Counted from the first letter of the stretch, positions 14,405 to 24,479 are shown. The stretch is DNA of 29,188 bases from an uncultured Enterobacteriaceae bacterium (GCA_964553165.1 CAZKJY010000001.1:1-29188), one strand, 5' to 3'. The notes: generated from the sequence alone by a model not told the origin. Made by a program: numbers and translations.

Positions 14405-15109
14405 ATGATGAAATTTTCCAGTATAAGTCTCAGTTTAGCCGCAATCATGGTTCTGCTATCCAGCGCCCCTGCCATGGCACAGGTTCGTGGCGCAGCCGCA
14501 CAGCAGCAGATGAGTTTTTTTGTGACCAGTGCCGGTTCAGGTATGGGGGGAAATCTTGGTGGTCTGGCCGGTGCTGATGCCCGTTGCCAGGCGCTGGCCG
14601 CTGTCGCTGGTGCCGGTAACAAGACCTGGCACGCCTACCTCAGCACGCAGGGACCGAATGCCGTAAATGCCCGTGACCGCATTGGTTCCGGCCCCTGGTA
14701 TAATGCCAATGGTGACATGATTGCCAGAAATCTGGCCGAGCTTCACAATGAAACCAGTAACAACCTGTCAGTAAGAACCGCCCTGGATGAACACGGTGCC
14801 CCGGTGCCTTACGTTGCCCTGGATGAAAACGGTGCTCCTTTGCCGATTGCCCTGCAGATTGGTGTTGAGCACGACGCTCTGACTGGCACACAGGCGGATG
14901 GCACTGCCTTTCCGGCCGGAGAAGACCGAACCTGTGGTAACTGGACCTCCAGCGGTGATGGTTCTGCCATGCTTGGCCATATTGACCGTCTCAGTCTGCA
15001 GCCAGGTTTGTCACCCTGGGCAGCAGCTCACCCCTCCCAGGGTTGCAGTCAGCAGGCGCTGGTCAATACCGGTGGTGCAGGCCGCTTCTACTGCTTCGCG
15101 ATTGATTAA
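14405..15109 (+). CDS. Secreted endostatin-like / C-type-lectin-fold protein (DUF1554-related)
   Basis: Signal peptide, then FFVTS..GNLGGLAGADARCQ, WHAYLS, TG..ADG...TCGNWTS, GC and FYCF. The four Cys are spaced as in collagen XVIII endostatin and Leptospira Len proteins. Family recognised from memory, not searched. Confidence 0.7.
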   Translation: MMKFSSISLSLAAIMVLLSSAPAMAQVRGAAAQQQMSFFVTSAGSGMGGNLGGLAGADARCQALAAVAGAGNKTWHAYLSTQGPNAVNARDRIGSGPWYNANGDMIARNLAELHNETSNNLSVRTALDEHGAPVPYVALDENGAPLPIALQIGVEHDALTGTQADGTAFPAGEDRTCGNWTSSGDGSAMLGHIDRLSLQPGLSPWAAAHPSQGCSQQALVNTGGAGRFYCFAID

Positions 15110-15126
15110 GCACTGAACTCAACTTT

Positions 15127-16032
15127 ATGCTGAAACGACTGCTTTGCCTGGCACTCCTGTGCCAGGCAACTCCCTTACTCGCTCAGGAATCCGACATTGT
15201 TGGTTTCTGGAATCAGCCTGCCCCGGGAATCGCCATTGATTCCGAACTGTTCGGATTCATCGAGGATGCCAATGAACGCGCCGATGGCCCCCCTCTGGTG
15301 GACTACCTGGGCATTCCACTGAATGAAGAGGCGCTGTCCCGGGCACTTTCCTATGACAGTGCCCTGCTGGGAGTTACCGAACATGTGTGCATGCGCCACC
15401 CATCCCAGTATTCGTACTGGGGGCCTGCTGCCCTGCGCATTGCCGCTCAGCTGGACGACAATCTGGACCTGATTTCCTATACCATCGGCGGCACTTTCCG
15501 CCGGGCAGACCGGACCATCTGGATGGATGGCAGACCGCACCCATCCGAATACGCCCCCCATACCTGGGCCGGCTTCACAACCGGACGCTGGGAAAACGGC
15601 ACCCTGATCACAACCACCACTCACCTGAAATGGGGCTGGGTAAGACGTAATGGGGTTCCCAGCAGTGATGAGGCAACGGTAACCACTTACTATCAGCGCA
15701 ATGATGGTGTGCTGACCATCACCTGGTTTGTTGATGACCCGCATTACCTGACAGACAGCTATGTCAGGTCCGCCGATTTCATAATTGCTCCTCAGGGAGT
15801 AACAACGGCCACCTTCGGCGTGGAACCGCCGGACACCACAGACAACGTCTACCTGGAATGTCTCAACATTGCTGAAATTCCTCGTCCGGAAAGACACTAT
15901 GTGCCCCATTATCTGCCCGGCGAGAATCCCTTTTACGGCGACCGGGCGGAAGAGCTGGGCATTCCGGTAGCCCCCACCCTGGGCGGCGAAGCAACGATGT
16001 ATCCTGAATACCGTGAAGAGTTAAGACCATGA
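15127..16032 (+). CDS. Secreted uncharacterised protein, two-Cys family paralogue P1
   Basis: Signal peptide (LLA|QE). Motifs DIVGFW, DYLGIPLN, VCMRHP, RTIWMDGRPH, TWAGFTTGRWENGTLITTT, RRNGVPSS, DDPHYL and LECL are shared with the 17026 and 20162 ORFs. Confidence 0.85.
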   Translation: MLKRLLCLALLCQATPLLAQESDIVGFWNQPAPGIAIDSELFGFIEDANERADGPPLVDYLGIPLNEEALSRALSYDSALLGVTEHVCMRHPSQYSYWGPAALRIAAQLDDNLDLISYTIGGTFRRADRTIWMDGRPHPSEYAPHTWAGFTTGRWENGTLITTTTHLKWGWVRRNGVPSSDEATVTTYYQRNDGVLTITWFVDDPHYLTDSYVRSADFIIAPQGVTTATFGVEPPDTTDNVYLECLNIAEIPRPERHYVPHYLPGENPFYGDRAEELGIPVAPTLGGEATMYPEYREELRP

Positions 16033-17018
16033 ACCGCGTTATTTCCATGATGGCGGACAACTCCCTGAGCCTGCTGCTCACAGGCCTTCTGAGTCTCAGC
16101 CTCGCACTGTCAGCAAGGGCCAATCCTGAAGAACCACCAGTCTCGGGCCAGCTGGAAACCCTGCATGTGCAGGGCAATGTCTGGATGATTGCCGGTGCCG
16201 GTGGCAATATTGCTGTACAGGTTGGTGAACAGGGCATCATGCTGGTGGATACGGGGAGTCTCGAACCGGCTGAAGCCGTCATTGCGGCCATCGCGAAAAT
16301 ATCCGACCGCCCGATTCGTTACATCATCAATACCTCCACCGCCGACCAGCATGTTGGTGGCAATACTCTGATAGCGGCCTTACCGGGCGGTTCGACGCGG
16401 GGCGCTGAACGGGGTGCACGGATCAGTGTGATTGCTCAGGAAAATGTTCTCTTCCAGATGAGTGTCGCCCTTACAGAGGATGGAGAACAGCGCTATCCGC
16501 AATCTTCCTGGCCCACTGAAGGCTATTTTGAAGCCAGTCGGGGCCAGACTTTCAATGGCGAAGCCATCGATATCATACACATGCCCAATGCCTACAGTGA
16601 CGGTGATACAGTCGTTTATTTCCGGGGCTCCAATGTTCTGGTCAGTGGCGACATCTACACCACGACCAACCTGCCCCTGATAGATCCTGACAAAGGCGGC
16701 AGCCTGGCTGGCAGCATTGCGGCACTGGACCGAATGCTGGAAATCACCATCTCCGGGGATTTAGCCGAAGGCGGCACCTACATCATTCCGGGTCATGGTT
16801 ATATTTCCGATGAGGCTGAACTGGTTGAGTTCCGTGACATGACCTATATCATCCGCGACCGGCTACAGCGCCTTGTCAGCGAGGAAGGAGCCAGTCTGGA
16901 TGCAGTCAAGGCTGCCCGGCCCGTGCTGGGCTGGGAGAGCCGCTACAGTCAGCCGGGCTGGACGGTTGACATGTTTCTGGAGACAGTTTATCCAGAATTT
17001 ACAGGCCAGAATGACTAG
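16029..17018 (+). CDS. Secreted metallo-beta-lactamase-fold protein with a degenerate metal site
   Basis: GGNIAVQVG..GIMLVDTG, IRYIINTSTADQHVGGN, HMPNAYSDGD, VSGDIY and IIPGHG. The start overlaps the P1 stop (ATGA). Confidence 0.88.
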   Translation: MNRVISMMADNSLSLLLTGLLSLSLALSARANPEEPPVSGQLETLHVQGNVWMIAGAGGNIAVQVGEQGIMLVDTGSLEPAEAVIAAIAKISDRPIRYIINTSTADQHVGGNTLIAALPGGSTRGAERGARISVIAQENVLFQMSVALTEDGEQRYPQSSWPTEGYFEASRGQTFNGEAIDIIHMPNAYSDGDTVVYFRGSNVLVSGDIYTTTNLPLIDPDKGGSLAGSIAALDRMLEITISGDLAEGGTYIIPGHGYISDEAELVEFRDMTYIIRDRLQRLVSEEGASLDAVKAARPVLGWESRYSQPGWTVDMFLETVYPEFTGQND

Positions 17019-17025
17019 TCTGAAC

Positions 17026-17841
17026 ATGAATATGAAAAGAACACAATTGAAGATACTGATCAAACTGTCTGGTGTCCTTCTGCTTAACGCAGTCCTGCCA
17101 CTGGTAGCACAGGCCCAGGAATCCATCTATCAGCGATTCTCTCCCATTGATATCACCGGCAACTGGGTCGCAGTCATTACAGAAGACTGGCACGTCCGCA
17201 TGATAACCCCGGCACCGGGATATCTGGCAGGCCTGCCGCTCAGTAACCGGGGTCGGGAAAGTGCCAATGCCTTTGACATAGAGCAGTTCAGGGAATCAGG
17301 CCAGGCCTGTCAGGCCTATGGGGCTCCTGTCCTGCTGCGAGAACCTGGTCGTCTGCAAATCAGCTGGCAGGATGGCGATACCTTGCGCATCGATATGGAT
17401 TCCGGTGAGCAGAGCCGCTTTCTGCATTTTGATAACCCGCCTCAGCCAGGCGCGCCCAGTCTGCAGGGTCTTTCCCTGGCCGAGTGGCAGTATGCCGGTG
17501 GTTTTGACCCGCAACGCCAGCTGCTGAATCCCGATCAGGGCACCGGTCGCCGAACCCTTAATCAGCGTACTCCGGCCCAGCAAATGGTCGGTGGCAAGCT
17601 GTATGTGGAAACAGGGAATTTAAGTGCTGGCCTTCTGCGCAAAAATGGCGTGCCTTACAGCAGCGAGACTGAAGTGAAAGAATACTTCAACACGCTCACA
17701 GAAGCGGATGGAACAGAGTGGTTGATCGTGACGACGATTGTGCGTGATCCGGTTAATCTGCTGGTGGAGTACATCACCAGTTCCAATTTCCGTCGCGAGG
17801 CTGATAATGCCGGCTGGGACCCGAGGCCCTGCACACTTTAA
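17026..17841 (+). CDS. Secreted uncharacterised protein, two-Cys family paralogue P2
   Basis: Signal peptide (AQA|QE). Motifs DITGNW, GYLAGLPLS, ACQAYG, QGLSLAEW, GKLYVETGNL, LRKNGVPYS, RDPVNL and PRPC. Start could be ATG 17011, 17026 or 17032. Confidence 0.83.
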   Translation: MNMKRTQLKILIKLSGVLLLNAVLPLVAQAQESIYQRFSPIDITGNWVAVITEDWHVRMITPAPGYLAGLPLSNRGRESANAFDIEQFRESGQACQAYGAPVLLREPGRLQISWQDGDTLRIDMDSGEQSRFLHFDNPPQPGAPSLQGLSLAEWQYAGGFDPQRQLLNPDQGTGRRTLNQRTPAQQMVGGKLYVETGNLSAGLLRKNGVPYSSETEVKEYFNTLTEADGTEWLIVTTIVRDPVNLLVEYITSSNFRREADNAGWDPRPCTL

Positions 17842-17845
17842 GCGC

Positions 17846-19564
17846 TCAGCAATCCCTGTAATCGTTTTCGGCACAGGCCCGGGCTCTTTCCATCGCCGTG
17901 ATAATCTGATCGGCACTCAAACGGGGTTCCAGATTTTGCTGGTAGGTACGGGCCTGCTGGTTATTCTGTTCCGATGCCAGTTGCGCCCACATGTAGGCAT
18001 CAATCAATGAGGCACTTTCCATCCCAAGGCCTTCGGCATACATGACAGCCAGATTGGCCTGAGCCGGGGCATAACCGCGCTCTGCCGCCATCCTGAAATA
18101 AGCAACCGCCTGTTCCAGATTTTGCGGGGTCCCCTGGGCATTAACATGCATCATCCCCAGATTGAGCATGGCCTGGGTATCATTCAGTGCAGCTGCCTGC
18201 TCATAATAACGCATCGTTTCAGCCAGATTCTGTTCTACGCCGAGACCATTGGCATACATCCAGGCCAGATTGACCATGCCTCGGGCATACTCCTGCTCCA
18301 CGGCCAGACGGTAGAGTCGCACGGCTTCTTCAAAATCCTGGTCGACACCCTGACCATTGGCATACATCACGCCCAGGTTGGTCTGGGCCTCGGCACTCTG
18401 CTGTGCTGCCGCCAGCCGGTAGAGACGGATTGCCTCATCAAAATTCTGCGGGATACCCTGACCCAGATAATGTTTATTAGCCAGCGCCACTTGTGCCAGG
18501 GTGAAATTCTGCTGCGCGGCCAGTTGAAACAGACTGGCGGCTATGGTGGCGTTACGGGGGAAGCCATCGCCGTTATCGTATTTGAGGCCAAGGGTAAACT
18601 GCGCACGGGCACTGCCAAAATCGGCAGCTCTCTCATAAAGTCGCAGTGCCTGATTCAGATCAGGCGCCACGCCATGACCGTTTTCATACATCCAGCCCAG
18701 CCAGTAAATTGCCTGTGGATTACTCTGGTCTGCCGCCGCTATAAAGAGTCTCATGGCTTCTTCATAATCCTGCTCGACTATATCGCCGTCCAGATACAGA
18801 TTGGCCACTGCCACCTGGGCGGGGGCATAGTCCTGATCGGCAGCGGCACGATACAGTTCAAGCGCCATTGATGGATCACTTTCCACACCGCTGCCCTGAT
18901 AATACATGTTGCCCAGATTCATCTGGGCAGGTGCAAACCCGTGCTCGCTGGCCTGTTGATAAAGCCGCACGGCTTCCTCCAAATCCTGTTCGACACCCTC
19001 GCCATTCAGATACAGGTTGCCGAGACTGACCAATGCCTGGTCATCCCCCTGTTCCGCCGCCCGGGTGAACAGATCAACTGCTTCCCGGTAATCCCTGTCG
19101 ACACCCTGGCCGTTCAGATACATGAAGGCCAGCTTGACATAGGCTGGGGCATAATCCTGGTCAGCGGCTTCTTCATACAGGTCCATTGCCGCCTCCATAT
19201 CCGGGATGCCACTGGTGCCGGCAAAACTGAGATCACCCTGATAAACCAGGGCTTCGGGATTGCCGGCCTCGGCCGCCAGACTATAGAGCCGGTTAGCCTC
19301 GCCAACATCCTGGGTAAGGAATTCACCCGCTATGTAGAGTTTGGCCAGTCTGACCTGGGCTTCTGCGTTGCCCTGATCTGCGAGTTCCCTGAATTCGCTG
19401 ATAGCCTGATCCATATCACCGGAAGCTTCTGCTGCCAGTGCCGTTTCCAGTTCGGCAGCAGATGCCTGCCAGCCGAAAACCTGCAGGAGCAGGACCGTGC
19501 CAAGCAAAAGGCAGCGAAGTATATTCAGGGGTTTGCCAGAAGACATGAAGCTGTATACGGACAT
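17846..19564 (-). CDS. Secreted Sel1-like repeat (SLR) protein
   Basis: Signal peptide (ASA|A), then 13 counted ~36-aa repeats of the type A.A...LG..Y..G.GV..D...A...Y..AA.QG, and a C-terminal C-x7-C (CAENDYRDC). Confidence 0.93.
   Translation of the reverse strand: MSVYSFMSSGKPLNILRCLLLGTVLLLQVFGWQASAAELETALAAEASGDMDQAISEFRELADQGNAEAQVRLAKLYIAGEFLTQDVGEANRLYSLAAEAGNPEALVYQGDLSFAGTSGIPDMEAAMDLYEEAADQDYAPAYVKLAFMYLNGQGVDRDYREAVDLFTRAAEQGDDQALVSLGNLYLNGEGVEQDLEEAVRLYQQASEHGFAPAQMNLGNMYYQGSGVESDPSMALELYRAAADQDYAPAQVAVANLYLDGDIVEQDYEEAMRLFIAAADQSNPQAIYWLGWMYENGHGVAPDLNQALRLYERAADFGSARAQFTLGLKYDNGDGFPRNATIAASLFQLAAQQNFTLAQVALANKHYLGQGIPQNFDEAIRLYRLAAAQQSAEAQTNLGVMYANGQGVDQDFEEAVRLYRLAVEQEYARGMVNLAWMYANGLGVEQNLAETMRYYEQAAALNDTQAMLNLGMMHVNAQGTPQNLEQAVAYFRMAAERGYAPAQANLAVMYAEGLGMESASLIDAYMWAQLASEQNNQQARTYQQNLEPRLSADQIITAMERARACAENDYRDC
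17960..19366 (-). repeat. Thirteen tandem 108-bp Sel1 repeat units (protein-level repeat, divergent at DNA level)
   Basis: Repeats counted by hand from AEAQVRL (aa 67) to ...ASEQNN (about aa 535). Boundaries are approximate. Confidence 0.85.
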
Positions 19565-19603
19565 GGTTAATTATCTAGTTTTTATTGAACCCTGCGGATG
19601 AAT

Positions 19604-19632
19604 ACTCTAAGCCTATTTAATCTCTTGGGCAA
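19604..19632 (-). promoter_or_regulatory. Putative sigma70 promoter for the Sel1 gene
   Basis: On the minus strand, TTGCCC-N17-TAGAGT lies about 40 nt upstream of the ATG at 19564. Confidence 0.45.
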
Positions 19633-19680
19633 TGCCCGCCCTGATATGAGGCCATCCGGAGGCTGATGATCCCAGCAATG

Positions 19681-19713
19681 AAAAAGCCCGGCTGGAAACC
19701 AGACCGGGCTTTT
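19681..19713 (-). terminator. Intrinsic terminator downstream of the DUF6152-like gene (bidirectional shape)
   Basis: AAAAAGCCCGG-CTGG-AAA-CCAG-A-CCGGGCTTTT is a GC stem with A/T tracts on both sides, 30 nt past the stop at 19743. Confidence 0.85.
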
Positions 19714-19742
19714 AAGAAGCAAATAAGTAAGTATGTACTTAC

Positions 19743-20135
19743 TTATTCATCAGCTGGGTTAATGGCAAAACCATTGAGTGGGTTCAGCGTTTGCCCATTA
19801 ACAACAGCATCAAGCCATGCGGCCGCCGGGCGACCATCTTTCATCGGGTTACCGCGGATGGTTATAGCGGTTCCGGGGGGCAGATCACTGCGTCGAATGC
19901 CGGCACGCATCAGGGAACTTGGCCCTTCCGCCTCAAAGCCCCAGGTGGTGACAGAACCGTCATCATTGGTGACATCAATGATCAGCCAGGAATGTGGATT
20001 GGTGTACTGAAATTCTTTAACGACACCGGACACTTCCACCACACGGGTATCATCAAACATGGCCGCGGAATGATGTGCCGCAACCGGTAAACTGAACAGC
20101 GCCAGAATGAATGCGCTTAGGGTTAATTTTTTCAT
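19743..20135 (-). CDS. DUF6152-family-like small secreted protein
   Basis: Signal peptide (PVAA|HHS), then HHSAAMFD, VSGVVKEFQYTNPHSWL and WGFEAEGP. Strong SD GAGGAGG precedes the start. Family name recalled from this motif pattern, not searched. Confidence 0.8.
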   Translation of the reverse strand: MKKLTLSAFILALFSLPVAAHHSAAMFDDTRVVEVSGVVKEFQYTNPHSWLIIDVTNDDGSVTTWGFEAEGPSSLMRAGIRRSDLPPGTAITIRGNPMKDGRPAAAWLDAVVNGQTLNPLNGFAINPADE

Positions 20136-20161
20136 GGGATATACCTCCTCTACCTGAATGA

Positions 20162-21142
20162 TTATTCGCGACCGAACTGCTGCACGGACGCATCTGAGCT
20201 GACTTCAGCATCATTGTCCAGAAAGTCGAAATCCGGAAACTGACTGTTGCCATCTTCAGTAATGATGATGTCGTTGTTCTGGTTCTCACCACACCACCAG
20301 TAGCGAATGCGCAGCAGGTGGTCATCGTTTTCCAGCTCTATCCAGGCCTGGCGGGTATACCAGGGCTCTGCCAGATTAACCGGATCAAAGACCCAGAAAT
20401 CAGCCTCCAGATTGATGCCGTCAACTTTTCGCCAACGTTCTACCACTTCGACCTGGTCTGAATAATCGGGCTGCGTGCCGCGCTGATACTGACCAGGCAT
20501 CAGATAGGCGGTGTGCATGACCAGCACACCATCATCCCAGAAACCAATGGTATCGCCATTCCAGGTAGGATAGGCATCAGCGGGATCGGTATGCCCTCTG
20601 CCGTCCGTGTAGACTCGGCGAATATCATTGACCATTTCGTTGATCAAATAGGTCTGGTCCGGGGTAACGACAAAATCATGTAAAAAGGGTTCTGAGGCCC
20701 AGCGTGGATGACCAGGTGGACGGCAATCGGAAATCGGGTCATATTCGCCACCGATGGCCGCCATGCGATCGATTTTTTCCTGACGGGTAGCAGCTCCGGT
20801 TTCGGTAAGCTGCGCTGATAATTCATTCGGCCCGATATCCGGATCAAAGGAAAGACCACCACGGGCACGGGTAAAAACGCCTGTCCAGTCATATTCAGGA
20901 CTGGCCATGTCGGCCCAGGTCAGATCATCGCCACCACCAGCCTGCCGCTCAAGATACTGGTACATTTCCCAGGCGCTATCAAACTGTTCTCCGAATGCCT
21001 GAAGCCGCGCTTTATTTCGCAGCCACTGCTCACCGCCACCGGCATAATCAAGCCAACCCACATAATCCTGGGCAAAGGCGCTGAGAGGGATGCCAATAGA
21101 TGCTGAGATCACAGCTGTTTTAATCATTTTTGCTGCTTTCAT
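20162..21142 (-). CDS. Secreted uncharacterised protein, two-Cys family paralogue P3
   Basis: Signal peptide (AFA|QD). Motifs DWTGVF, DCRPPGHP, RRVYTDGRGH, PTWNGDTIGFWDDGVLVMHT, FDPVNLAEPW and YWWCGENQNN. Start moved to ATG 21142. Confidence 0.85.
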   Translation of the reverse strand: MKAAKMIKTAVISASIGIPLSAFAQDYVGWLDYAGGGEQWLRNKARLQAFGEQFDSAWEMYQYLERQAGGGDDLTWADMASPEYDWTGVFTRARGGLSFDPDIGPNELSAQLTETGAATRQEKIDRMAAIGGEYDPISDCRPPGHPRWASEPFLHDFVVTPDQTYLINEMVNDIRRVYTDGRGHTDPADAYPTWNGDTIGFWDDGVLVMHTAYLMPGQYQRGTQPDYSDQVEVVERWRKVDGINLEADFWVFDPVNLAEPWYTRQAWIELENDDHLLRIRYWWCGENQNNDIIITEDGNSQFPDFDFLDNDAEVSSDASVQQFGRE

Positions 21143-21221: not shown

Positions 21222-21249
21222 ACTATATTTTCTGGGTAAAACAATGCAA
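21222..21249 (-). promoter_or_regulatory. Putative sigma70 promoter for the P3-DUF6152 pair
   Basis: Minus-strand TTGCAT-N16-TATAGT in the AT-rich divergent intergenic region. Confidence 0.4.
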
Positions 21250-21393
21250 ATAGCTGGACGCTAAAAAAAAACAGGTTTATTCTTGACCGACTCGAATTAA
21301 AGTTTTATCGGGATTTTTTGTGTTTCCTGAATACGAAATCCGGGCCTGTTACAGCCCGAGAGTTTCATGAACTTTAGCGACATTAACAACATC

Positions 21394-22926
21394 ATGCACA
21401 CTCAAACCCCGCTTTTCCCGCCAGTCAGATTGCTGATTCTGGCGGGTGCTTTCACCCTTAGCGCCCAAGCCCAGGAACCGGTTGATATCACCCGCCTGGT
21501 TTTCGATGTCACTTCCGCCAGCCAGCGGATCCTGCCAGTCGGGCCTCCCCTGTCTGAGGCCGATGAAAGCAATACGGATTATCTTTCCCTCCTGGAGACC
21601 ATCAGATCCTATGAGGCAGAGGTAGACCGTATTCACCAGAGCAGCAACAACCCGTATAACTATGAGCTGCTCGAACAGTATATGAGCCTAGGGGATGCCC
21701 ATCATGAACTGGGCCGTTATGAAGAGGCGATTACCTATTATGACAATGCCCTGCAGATCATGAAGGTGCAGAACGGACTGCACAGTATTGACCAGCTGAC
21801 CATTACAGAAAAAGTTATCCAGAGCTACCTTGCCATGGGCGACCTTGAGAAAGGGACCCGCTGGCATGAATATGAACACTACCTGCACCTGCACAACTAT
21901 GAACCTGGTTCCCGGGAAATGGTGCTGGCCAGCAATGAACTGGCTGACTGGTACATCAGCACCTTCTTCATGGAAAATCTGCAAAGCCAGTATCTCAACG
22001 GCTTGAGGATGTCCGTACTCCCGGAACAGGAACGCATCGCTAATCCGCTGGTCGCCGAGCAGATGGCCTGGTCCAATGAATTCAACCGGATCAGCCGGGA
22101 ATCACCAACTGCCTATGTCGATCCGAACATGGAAGCGATATTCAACGGCACCATTCAGGATCTGACACCCCGTGAAGTGGAAGATGCCCGTCTCCTGCTG
22201 GTCGGCGAAATGTATGAGGATAGCCAGCAAGCCATTTATGACAGCGAGTCACCTGATATTGACTCCATTGCCCAGATAGCAAGGCGTATTGCCGGGCTCT
22301 CCTTCATCACCAAACAGGAACAGGATTACGAAAGGATTAATTACAGCTTCATTCCCAACTACAGCGACAGCCGCATCGAAGAATTCCGAAATTCCCAGCA
22401 ACGGCTTGATCACAGTTATGAGACCGGTCGTAGAGCCTTGCGCTATATCGTCAATATCATGCGTACCGTGGAGGCGCCTCCGAGAATGGTCGCTTCAGCG
22501 CTGATTGAGCTGGCAGACTGGAACCTGGCCTATGGCAAAATCCAGGCAGCCCGTGATTTCTATGAAGAAGCCTATGAAGAACTGATTTCAGCAGGTTTTA
22601 CGATGCGTCAGATTGACAGTTCCCTGAATCTGGCAGTCCCGCGTCAGATCCCCCGTTCAGCCACCCATCGCTTTACCCGCAGAAGTTCTGGTCTGCCTGT
22701 CGATGCTGAACTGGACTACCGGGGATACATTGATCTCAGCTTCGAGGTTGACTCGCTGGGTAATGCTCAGGAAGTCGTTTTCACTCGTAACGACAACCCT
22801 GAATACAGGCAATTGGAGAGGGTCATTACTGATTATCTGAAAACTGCCAAATTCAGGCCGCATTTCGATAATGGCGAACTAGTCAGTCAGGGCCGTGTGG
22901 AACTCCGCTATTACTATTCCTACTAG
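21394..22926 (+). CDS. Secreted TPR-containing protein with C-terminal TonB-C-like domain (copy 1)
   Basis: Signal peptide (AQA|QE), a TPR-like segment (SLGDAHHELGRYEEAITYYDNAL) and a C-terminal GYIDLSFEVDSLGNA...KFRPHFDNGELV...LRYYYSY. Start is ATG 21394, or possibly 21367. Confidence 0.75.
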   Translation: MHTQTPLFPPVRLLILAGAFTLSAQAQEPVDITRLVFDVTSASQRILPVGPPLSEADESNTDYLSLLETIRSYEAEVDRIHQSSNNPYNYELLEQYMSLGDAHHELGRYEEAITYYDNALQIMKVQNGLHSIDQLTITEKVIQSYLAMGDLEKGTRWHEYEHYLHLHNYEPGSREMVLASNELADWYISTFFMENLQSQYLNGLRMSVLPEQERIANPLVAEQMAWSNEFNRISRESPTAYVDPNMEAIFNGTIQDLTPREVEDARLLLVGEMYEDSQQAIYDSESPDIDSIAQIARRIAGLSFITKQEQDYERINYSFIPNYSDSRIEEFRNSQQRLDHSYETGRRALRYIVNIMRTVEAPPRMVASALIELADWNLAYGKIQAARDFYEEAYEELISAGFTMRQIDSSLNLAVPRQIPRSATHRFTRRSSGLPVDAELDYRGYIDLSFEVDSLGNAQEVVFTRNDNPEYRQLERVITDYLKTAKFRPHFDNGELVSQGRVELRYYYSY

Positions 22927-23027
22927 ATAACAGTCCACGAACAGCACTGACAGAGCGCCGCCCAGACATGCTTGCCAATAACAACGTGTTCAAATACTCA
23001 ATAATGCTCAATATTAGGAACGTGGGG

Positions 23028-24479
23028 ATGTTTAAACAGTTTAGCCTCGTATTGCTCCTGCTGACTTTGCTGCCATTCCAGGGTCTGGCACAGAATGATG
23101 ACCTTACCAACCTGTTTTTCAGCCCGGTCCCTATCGATCAGGCCAACGACTCCATTCTGGGAGGGGCCACACAGGAACAGCGCGAACGGGACCGAGAATC
23201 CGCACGGGACCTCATAGAGCGGCTAGAGTCCCGAATTGATGACATCAGTGAGCCTTTTGCCCAGGACCCTGATCAGGTGGAGCGGCTGAGCCGCTTGGGC
23301 CTTGCCTATCAGATGCTTGGTGATCATGATGCCGCACTGGCCACCTTTGCTGATGCGACCACACTGGCCGTCGAGCTCTATGGCGAAGACACCCTGGAAC
23401 AGATTCCGGCACTGGAACAGTCCATCATCAGTCATCTTGCCCGTCAGGAAATTTCAGCCATCACTGAAAAGGAAGAGTTTATCTACGAGATCAACGCCCT
23501 CAACTATGACTCTGATTCTCCAGAAATGTATACGGCAATGACCAATCTGGCAGACTGGTATACCGCTGCCTATTTTAAAATCAACTATCTTGGGGATTCC
23601 CGTCGCCAGAATATCCGCAGTTCAACCCTGCAGAGACCCGAACGGCAAGTCGGTATTTCCAACGATGGCTCAGGATCCCTGCAATCAATCGCCGATGGCA
23701 CAATTCGTGATATTTTCCGGAATGATCTGATCGATTCCCGTTTGCAGAAGCTTGATGGGCTCTACCGGGATTATCAGGAAAGCTATACCAGCAATACCAC
23801 CTTGAATACCGTGGTCGAAGTAGCTCGCCGGATTGCCCGGCTGGCCTATCATGCCGATCAGGAAATGAATTTTGAACGGGTCAGTAATACTTTTGACGCA
23901 AACTATACCGGTTCCCGCGAAGAAGCCATGCGGAATTCCGAGGCCCGGCGCGATGAAAGCTACCGTAGCGGCAAAGACGCACTGCAGTACGTTGCCAGCC
24001 TGATTGCCGATTTGGAAGGCGTCAGCTCCCAGCAGAAGAGCCTGACCATGCTGGACCTGGCGGACTGGGATCTGGCGTATGGCAGGATCGAATCGGCCCG
24101 TCAGTTTTACCGCGTGGCCTACCAGCTCCTGATTGACGATAACTTCAATATCCCCAGTATTGATGCAGCCCTGACGCCAACCATCCCGGTCATGATTCCA
24201 AGAATTGCCGCCTTCCCGGCGACCCTGCAGACATCCGGCAAGCAGGGACTACAGGGTTCCATTGAATATAAGGGTTATGTCGATGTGAGCTTTGCGGTTG
24301 ACACACTGGGAAACGCCATTGATCTTGATTTTCTTGGTGCCAGCGAGGATGCTAACAGTGGCCGCATTCAGCAAACCCTGGAAAATATGCTGAAGATGAC
24401 AAAATTCCGTCCCCTGCCAAAAGGCGGAGAGCTCATAGAACAACCTGCGATGCAGTTGCGCTACTATTACAGTTACTGA
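23028..24479 (+). CDS. Secreted TPR-containing protein with C-terminal TonB-C-like domain (copy 2)
   Basis: Signal peptide (GLA|QN), RLGLAYQMLGDHDAALATF and a C-terminal GYVDVSFAVDTLGNA...KFRPLPKGGELI...LRYYYSY. Clear paralogue of the upstream gene. Start moved to ATG 23028. Confidence 0.75.
   Translation: MFKQFSLVLLLLTLLPFQGLAQNDDLTNLFFSPVPIDQANDSILGGATQEQRERDRESARDLIERLESRIDDISEPFAQDPDQVERLSRLGLAYQMLGDHDAALATFADATTLAVELYGEDTLEQIPALEQSIISHLARQEISAITEKEEFIYEINALNYDSDSPEMYTAMTNLADWYTAAYFKINYLGDSRRQNIRSSTLQRPERQVGISNDGSGSLQSIADGTIRDIFRNDLIDSRLQKLDGLYRDYQESYTSNTTLNTVVEVARRIARLAYHADQEMNFERVSNTFDANYTGSREEAMRNSEARRDESYRSGKDALQYVASLIADLEGVSSQQKSLTMLDLADWDLAYGRIESARQFYRVAYQLLIDDNFNIPSIDAALTPTIPVMIPRIAAFPATLQTSGKQGLQGSIEYKGYVDVSFAVDTLGNAIDLDFLGASEDANSGRIQQTLENMLKMTKFRPLPKGGELIEQPAMQLRYYYSY

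Follow-up and report, generated by a model that had tools for sequence, protein, structure and literature searches.

The locus described here occupies nucleotides 14,405 to 21,142 of a 29,188-nucleotide (nt) stretch of DNA from an uncultured Enterobacteriaceae bacterium (GCA_964553165.1 CAZKJY010000001.1:1-29188; the whole stretch is referred to below as the window). It encodes three related proteins, designated P1, P2, and P3, together with a metallo-β-lactamase (MBL)-fold protein and a DUF6152 protein, and these five are the main subject of this report. The genes form two convergent groups (Table 1). On the plus strand, a gene for a DUF1554-like protein is followed after 17 nt by P1, which overlaps the MBL gene through the sequence ATGA, and the MBL gene is followed by P2, the start of which is ambiguous: taking the three candidate ATG codons in order, P2 overlaps the end of the MBL gene by 8 nt or begins 7 or 13 nt beyond its stop codon. 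On the minus strand, P3 lies 26 nt upstream of the DUF6152 gene, downstream of which is a Sel1-repeat gene that converges on P2, with 4 nt separating the gene ends. Open reading frame (ORF) analysis confirmed the gene positions, gaps, and overlaps given in an earlier reading of this DNA from the sequence alone (the sequence-only reading); for P2 that reading had allowed an overlap or a gap of at most 7 nt, which agrees with the first two candidate start codons, and the third gives the longer gap. The gene structure of the locus is firmly supported. All seven proteins carry a leader that is basic, then hydrophobic, and then of the A-x-A type, and in none is there a lipobox; signal peptides were assigned by eye from the basic n-region, the hydrophobic core, and the A-x-A-type cleavage site, and we refer to the proteins on this basis as predicted to be exported.

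TABLE 1 Genes and candidate regulatory features at the locus, in window coordinates (aa, amino acids)
Feature	Position	Strand	Description
Promoter-like site 5' of Endo-P1-MBL-P2	14324..14352	+	Consensus match alone; number of sites not above that in shuffled sequence
DUF1554-like (“Endo”) gene, 234 aa	14405..15109	+	Predicted exported; first gene of the plus-strand operon; from ORF analysis
P1, barrel protein, 301 aa	15127..16032	+	Predicted exported; first of the barrel-MBL-barrel triad; unnamed family
MBL-fold protein, 329 aa	16029..17018	+	Predicted exported; PF00753 match
P2, second barrel paralog	End 17841; candidate ATG codons 17011, 17026, 17032	+	Start ambiguous
Sel1-repeat gene, 572 aa, 12 repeats	17846..19564	-	Predicted exported; PF08238, E 7.6e-99; lies between the two gene groups
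Terminator-like hairpin, DUF6152/Sel1 interval	19685..19705	-	Not above shuffled expectation
DUF6152 protein, 130 aa	19743..20135	-	PF19649 match
P3, third barrel paralog, DUF6152 partner	20162..21142 (alternative TTG start 21175)	-	From ORF analysis
Promoter-like site 5' of P3-DUF6152	21222..21250	-	Consensus match alone; not above shuffled expectation

P1, P2, and P3 belong to one family, as the sequence-only reading had proposed, and they prove to be distant paralogs. P1 matches P2 with an E value of 1e-8 (25% identity across 263 aa) and P3 with an E value of 4e-9 (35% identity across 93 aa). Direct comparison of P2 with P3 gives no detectable similarity, and they are placed in the same family by transitivity, because both match P1. 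Each mature barrel protein contains exactly two cysteines (C88 and C245 in P1, C98 and C272 in P2, and C140 and C284 in P3), and this pair is conserved family-wide in alignments of 95 P1, 71 P2, and 25 P3 members. The motifs D-G-R, G-x-x-x-G-x-W, and N-G are common to the subfamilies. All of the features by which we delimit this unnamed two-cysteine barrel family, namely mutual homology, the cysteine pair, the core motifs, and a signal peptide called by eye, are found in P1, P2, and P3, and the paralogy of the three proteins is firmly supported. The residues conserved in P1 are C88, H91, Y95, D134-G-R136, H138, H145-T-W147, H166, K168, N175-G, and D204-P. No Pfam or NCBIfam model matches P1, P2, or P3, a Pfam scan of 96 diverse members of the barrel family found no family, and no relative of P1 turned up in the PDB by either sequence or profile. 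More than 3800 P1 homologs were present among the scored candidates. We found no database model, solved structure, or literature for the barrel family, even though an exhaustive search at E <= 1e-3 recovered no fewer than 1955 clusters (50% identity).

The surroundings of P1 were compared in 80 P1-seeded loci with 10-kb flanks, taken from a one-genome-per-species scan with the P1 alignment, and the window proteins were mapped onto them. The loci come from Gammaproteobacteria (records labeled Pseudohongiellaceae, SAR86, and Steroidobacteraceae) and from Acidobacteriota (Vicinamibacterales, Bryobacterales, and others); they are phylogenetically non-independent, and P1 identity across them ranges from 38 to 85% over at least two phyla. 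A triad-type MBL gene adjoins P1 in 70 of the 80 loci, and P2 is then present in 64. Within 10 kb of P1, DUF6152 is found in 29 of the 80 loci and a P3-type barrel in 21. The conserved units are P1-MBL-P2 and the pair formed by a barrel protein (P3) and DUF6152, and this division into two separable modules is firmly supported. The joint recurrence of these gene types in Acidobacteria and some gammaproteobacteria, which the sequence-only reading had put forward, is borne out by these counts. Its description of them as lacking an assigned function also holds: all of the families are uncharacterized, no characterized system combines barrel, MBL, and DUF6152 parts, and we found no published description of such a system.

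The partners within each module are also found as fusions. P1 and the MBL protein are encoded in one frame in about 15 of the 80 loci, two of which were verified as single ORFs (L059 9944-11800, 618 aa; L061 9893-11773, 626 aa), and 19 of the best 150 barrel cluster representatives are 560 to 660 aa long. In the ESM Atlas, the model of a 586-aa MBL cluster superposes on the barrel. For the second module, contig C106 of the window genome carries a 359-aa ORF whose product has a signal peptide and joins a DUF6152 domain (first residues A-H-H-S) to a barrel domain, and a 356-aa DUF6152 cluster in the ESM Atlas has a model that resembles a barrel. Because the partners are fused in some lineages and adjacent in others, P1 and the MBL protein, and likewise DUF6152 and its barrel, are likely to act together physically. 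Adjacency and fusion tie the barrel family to two partner families across phyla.

The sequence-only reading had gone further and joined the lectin-like (DUF1554-like) protein, P1, the MBL protein, P2, P3, and DUF6152 into one exported complex or a single pathway. In 11 gammaproteobacterial relatives the loci (52 to 97% identity) conserve the arrangement of the window in full, with the Sel1 gene included, the two operons converge to within a few nucleotides of each other, and in seven acidobacterial loci the DUF6152 gene lies inside the triad, in the order P1-MBL-DUF6152-P2, all of which would suit a six-protein system. Set against this, the DUF1554-like gene adjoins P1 in 11 of the 80 loci, all of them close relatives, and the Sel1 gene occurs in 11 of the 80, all of the syntenic gammaproteobacterial type (52 to 73% identity); in the remaining 69 loci neither is found. 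Moreover, DUF6152 and P3 accompany P1 in only a minority of the loci, and in the window genome the triads and pairs lie mostly on different contigs. We consider the six-protein system improbable. The genome has four DUF1554-like copies, and the copy in the window is the only one beside a barrel gene. The sequence-only label of this protein as endostatin-like likewise proved insecure: the DUF1554 match is below threshold (24.7 bits against a cut-off of 27.5) and covers only about 36 residues (47 to 82), which places the protein outside the family, and the score against the LenA/B model NF047482 (28.6 bits against a cut-off of 300) places it outside that family as well. The Sel1 gene was absent from the sequence-only gene list. 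We regard both the DUF1554-like protein and the Sel1 protein as lineage-specific additions outside the core.

Other genes near P1 recur less evenly. One Vicinamibacterales locus has the order P1-P1'-MBL-P2, with 53 to 71% identity to the window and a TonB-dependent receptor gene alongside; between P2 and the receptor gene in locus L001 (11880-12254) lies a 124-aa ORF that has no family match and is not DUF6152-like, carrying neither A-H-H nor N-P-H. Pyrroloquinoline quinone (PQQ)-dehydrogenase genes occur within 10 kb of P1 in 21 of the 80 loci (including L028, L039, L052, L061, L062, L072, and L078) and OEP/TolC-like genes in 37, and both recurrences come mostly from related Bryobacterales genomes, such that their independence is doubtful. 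Identity between this locus and those of Vicinamibacterales (L001 and L015 to L023) is 63 to 71% for P1, 59 to 65% for the MBL protein, and 50 to 55% for P2, and paralogs within the window's own genome are just 36 to 49% identical to this locus. That identity is higher across phyla than within the genome suggests either inter-phylum transfer or unusually strong constraint on this ortholog group.

Both modules are expanded in the window genome, a 2.43-Mb draft of 517 contigs with 91% completeness and 7.7% contamination. Besides the locus described here, it contains about 8 to 10 further triads, complete or truncated by contig ends (C27, C60, C68, C87, C129, C371, C386, C433, C500, and C504), solo P1-type genes (C2, C5, C119, and C384), and at least nine further DUF6152-barrel pairs (C5, two on C31, the fused pair on C106, C122, C253, C296, C465, and C482). 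A binning artifact as the source of this high copy number was rejected, since clean genomes of the same genus give like counts: 12 of 12 (2.0 to 3.1 Mb, contamination <=4%) contain 10 to 42 barrel-profile matches at E <= 1e-10 and 5 to 14 triad-type MBL matches at E <= 1e-40. The expansion is firmly supported, and no barrel match was found in 12 other families of the same order. The triads on C27 and C371 are 82% identical in DNA across 2.4 kb and are the sole pair resembling duplicates of one locus; they probably come from two strains or populations binned together, or else from a duplication of very recent date. DUF6152 was found in 15 of 201 sampled Pseudomonadota genomes, usually as a single copy, with 13 copies in the window genome and 7 in one other. 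Barrel partners accompany only the high-scoring DUF6152 subfamily, and such pairs are also present in genome G188. The barrel family has been expanded to tens of copies in the 2- to 3-Mb genomes of one abundant type of marine oligotroph, and also in soil Acidobacteriota. By a rough estimate, the modules make up about 2 to 3% of the genes in this streamlined marine genus. Genes retained at such copy number in streamlined genomes usually have a central ecological role, and the modules probably constitute a major periplasmic system in this genus and not a single six-protein machine. That each genome carries so many divergent paralogs suggests that the modules have different ligand specificities.

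A confident AlphaFold2 (AF2) model of P1 (pLDDT 88.8, pTM 0.86) was obtained from a 96-row alignment that included distant members of the family; with 39 close orthologs alone, the model was unusable (pLDDT 48.6). The model has short N-terminal helices, about 10 antiparallel strands (residues 100 to 220), a less confident segment (residues 221 to 250), and C-terminal helices. In a Foldseek search against the PDB, the best neighbors of P1 were FABP4, myelin P2, and bacterial avidins (probability 0.9 to 0.99, TM score by target 0.45 to 0.52), with no match at E <= 0.001, and the weak rows also included LptE-type lipoproteins. Judged from this model, P1 appears to consist of a calycin/FABP-like barrel core within a larger, otherwise new architecture that has no close solved relative. 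Members of the calycin superfamily (FABPs, lipocalins, and avidins) are closed antiparallel beta-barrels that enclose a ligand cavity. Like the calycins FABP4, myelin P2, and the avidins, the predicted core (residues ~100 to 220) is an up-and-down antiparallel barrel. In contrast to them, P1 is twice as long, with an N-terminal region that is helical and a C-terminal extension that is long, and it has the conserved cysteine pair; identity is 9 to 14% at E values of ~0.01, and Pfam detects no calycin signature. P1 further differs from the calycins in being predicted to be exported and in being partnered with an MBL or DUF6152 protein.

The MBL protein belongs to PF00753 (27.5 bits against a cut-off of 22.7, residues 59 to 238), and its structure neighbors in the ESM Atlas are all of the MBL fold (TM score 0.76 to 0.85). 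Catalytic dinuclear MBL enzymes have an HxHxDH motif, a downstream histidine, a bridging aspartate or cysteine, and a final histidine. The window protein lacks this full set: its motif reads S103-x-A105-x-Q107-H108, a tyrosine occupies position 189, and D208 and H256 are retained. The same degenerate pattern is present in 22 orthologs, in which Q107 is found in 22 of 22 and H108, D208, and H256 in 20 of 22 each, the Zn1 positions (S103 and A105) are replaced, and position 189 may be Y, H, F, T, or V. Among 78 triad MBL proteins, 19 have the canonical H-x-H-x-D-H...H...D...H site, 30 have S/G-x-D-x-D-H with the later ligands retained, 22 are of the window type, S-x-[A/S/G]-x-Q-H, and 7 fall outside all three classes. 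This pattern of conservation indicates that the Zn1 site is gone in this ortholog group and that selection maintains a His-His-Asp(+Gln) cluster where the Zn2 site would lie. A degenerate Zn1 site is compatible with catalysis in the mono-zinc B2 lactamases. The sequence-only reading had the protein as a pseudo-MBL, noncatalytic or repurposed; the loss of the Zn1 ligands agrees with this, but the noncatalytic part is not established, because Q107, H108, D208, and H256 are conserved across the ortholog group even though Zn1 is lost. It is possible, from the motif, that the window MBL is a pseudo-enzyme.

The solved sequence nearest to the MBL protein is PDB 8D2Z, an uncharacterized Burkholderia MBL protein (profile E 5e-17), followed by the B2 beta-lactamases CphA and Sfh-I (profile E ~2e-10) and by the alkylsulfatases SdsA1 and Pisa1 (profile E 7e-8 for SdsA1). 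SdsA1 also joins an MBL domain to a domain that binds hydrophobic ligands. The similarity to 8D2Z, the B2 enzymes, and SdsA1 is distant, however, and mostly confined to the N-terminal half of the window protein. Unlike in the alkylsulfatases, the accessory domain here would be a calycin-like barrel and not SCP-2, and it is encoded on both sides in separate or fused genes. In addition, the S-x-A-x-Q-H sequence of the window group lacks even the equivalent of Asp120. The best NCBIfam matches are to SoxH-related quinoprotein relay hydrolases, at scores that leave the window MBL outside these families (TIGR04559, 58.6 bits against a cut-off of 280, E 6e-16; TIGR04558, 47.1 bits against a cut-off of 300). 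These “quinoprotein relay system” zinc metallohydrolases of ped/xox clusters are exported MBL proteins whose role is unexplained (PMC12997753), a likeness to the window protein, which differs from them in its setting, since the window encodes neither a SoxYZ-like carrier nor a rhodanese nor a PQQ dehydrogenase.

By count, residue 86 of P1 appears to vary with the state of the partner MBL protein. Histidine at this position (window ~15382-15384) is accompanied by a degenerate MBL partner in 50 of the 51 rows that have it, and in three clades it goes with an MBL partner that has lost the HxH motif (27/27, 4/5, and 19/19 rows); where the partner MBL is canonical, position 86 is W, N, Y, or R. This association reflects about three independent changes, for which a sign test is not significant, and we regard it as a lead and not as a finding. 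An improbable extension would be that the triad is a new heteromeric periplasmic metalloenzyme with a composite active site, in which P1 lends His86 (perhaps with Met89 or His91) across an interface where the MBL protein has lost its first two zinc histidines, and that, with the DUF6152-barrel pairs, it forms a major system, overlooked so far, through which dissolved organic matter or trace metals in organically bound form would be processed. Compensation of metal-less MBL proteins by DUF6152 was also considered and was rejected, in that P1-MBL-DUF6152-P2 loci mostly have canonical MBL sites.

The DUF6152 protein is a clear member of PF19649 (110.9 bits against a cut-off of 27, E 3.4e-32, profile positions 4 to 93 of 98), a Pfam family without an assigned function whose description does not include, as far as is visible, the barrel partner or the fusions. 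Sequence and profile searches found no PDB relative. Nine residues are invariant in 24 aligned members: H21, H22, G37, P47, H48, G60, W65, G88, and G114. H48 lies within an N-P-H motif, and H21 and H22 come immediately after the A-x-A sequence that closes the leader, such that the mature N terminus is predicted to be His-His. In exported bacterial proteins, a histidine at the N terminus serves generally to chelate metal, and the exported N-terminal-His metalloproteins found by “signal strapping” include the Ni/Zn binders of DUF4198, DUF6702, and the anglerases Ang-1/2 (PMC12537917); the main text of that paper does not name DUF6152. By analogy, the arrangement of H21, H22, and H48 fits the type of N-terminal-His metal site that these other families have been shown to possess. 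Like the N-terminal-His metalloproteins and the histidine-brace copper proteins (lytic polysaccharide monooxygenases [LPMOs], CopC, and YcnI), DUF6152 is small, beta-rich, and predicted to be exported, with a predicted His-first mature chain and a distant conserved histidine, H48. In such proteins the histidine that begins the mature chain binds the metal by its amino group and side chain, along with a second histidine. It differs from them in having two adjacent invariant N-terminal histidines instead of one, and its metal role is a prediction.

The explanation that we favor, and to which we give roughly an even chance, is that the window carries two separable, co-inherited modules of a widespread exported system in which periplasmic barrels capture a small ligand and a metal-dependent partner acts on the captured ligand. 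P1, the MBL protein, and P2 are translationally coupled and would probably assemble into a hetero-complex. In the periplasm, a small organic ligand would be bound by the barrels and then offered to the metal-dependent partner, which in the ancestral triad would have been a dinuclear MBL hydrolase; in the ortholog group of the window it would have a reduced, possibly mononuclear Q-H-D-H site. In the second module, cleavage of the leader would expose the two histidines of DUF6152, which together with H48 would form a metal site, the partner center for P3.

Several observations weigh against this explanation. The Foldseek matches of P1 are weak (E ~0.01, TM score by query 0.21 to 0.28), and we infer a ligand-binding barrel from fold class. 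The most conserved P1 residues lie mainly in strand-joining loops of the AF2 model and are polar, and they could mark an interface instead of a pocket. A prediction of the P1+MBL+P2 complex gave a value of 0.91, which fell to 0.00 when P2 was replaced but stayed at 0.89 when the MBL chain was replaced; it failed the specificity rule set for the prediction (verdict “no support”) and is counted neither for nor against binding. The export of all of the proteins depends on leaders called by eye. Most single-copy DUF6152 genes of other Pseudomonadota have no barrel neighbor within 1.5 kb, and no paper in the library searched names DUF6152. In the window genome, the modules are not preferentially associated with any metabolic context: TonB-dependent receptors number 2 on module contigs against ~1.2 expected, none of three sulfatases is on a module contig, and other module copies are flanked by unrelated genes of housekeeping or regulatory type (acyl-CoA synthetase, alcohol dehydrogenase, two-component systems, and an ABC exporter).

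The main rival is that the modules capture and traffic metal. Here the N-terminal histidines of DUF6152 would capture a trace metal, as in the anglerases and DUF4198, the barrels would be chaperones or metallophore binders, and the MBL proteins would be metal-binding or metallophore-processing partners. We think this unlikely on balance, while taking it seriously. The invariance of H21, H22, and H48 at the predicted mature N terminus, together with the general chelating role of an N-terminal histidine (PMC12537917), fits such a role, as does the drift of the MBL ligands among the HxHxDH, SxDxDH, and SxAxQH classes, with sites that are often carboxylate-rich. Likewise, it is His, Asp, Lys, and Arg, and not hydrophobic residues, that P1 conserves, and a TonB-dependent receptor gene stands beside the Vicinamibacterales triad and on contigs C5 and C31 of the window genome. 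However, metal homeostasis would not usually call for ten or more divergent paralogous modules in a 2.3-Mb genome, the modules have no linked CopD-type, ABC, or P-type transporter in the window, no metal-responsive regulator is nearby, and TonB-dependent receptors are not enriched near modules in the window genome.

Less likely than the metal or metallophore role, and in our view as improbable as the six-protein complex, is that these are non-enzymatic envelope proteins. The barrels would then be structural or lipid-handling proteins, periplasmic or associated with the outer membrane, the MBL protein a decayed scaffold, and the histidines of DUF6152 without a metal role, with the expansion reflecting surface variation. 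The loss of Zn1 and the free variation of position 189 in the ortholog group, the LptE-type rows among the Foldseek matches, and the lack of consistently linked metabolic genes would all accord with this. Nevertheless, about a quarter of the triad MBL proteins (19 of 78) retain the complete HxHxDH...H...D...H site, the polar P1 residues are strictly conserved, as are the three DUF6152 histidines, the signal peptides lack a lipobox, and the 63 to 71% identity of P1 across phyla points to strong functional constraint. Identifying the ligand and the metal chemistry of the modules would probably allow thousands of genes now called “hypothetical” to be annotated and might uncover a new way in which organic matter or trace metals are handled in the periplasm.

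Downstream of the locus, two tandem paralogs on the plus strand (21367-22926 and 22968-24479) encode predicted exported proteins of ~500 aa that both end in a C-terminal LRYYYSY sequence; Pfam finds only one or two tetratricopeptide repeat (TPR) units in them, and they are present in the 11 syntenic relatives. An amidohydrolase-family gene (PF01979; 24499-25827, plus strand) is the last of this block of genes for exported proteins and precedes dnaG.

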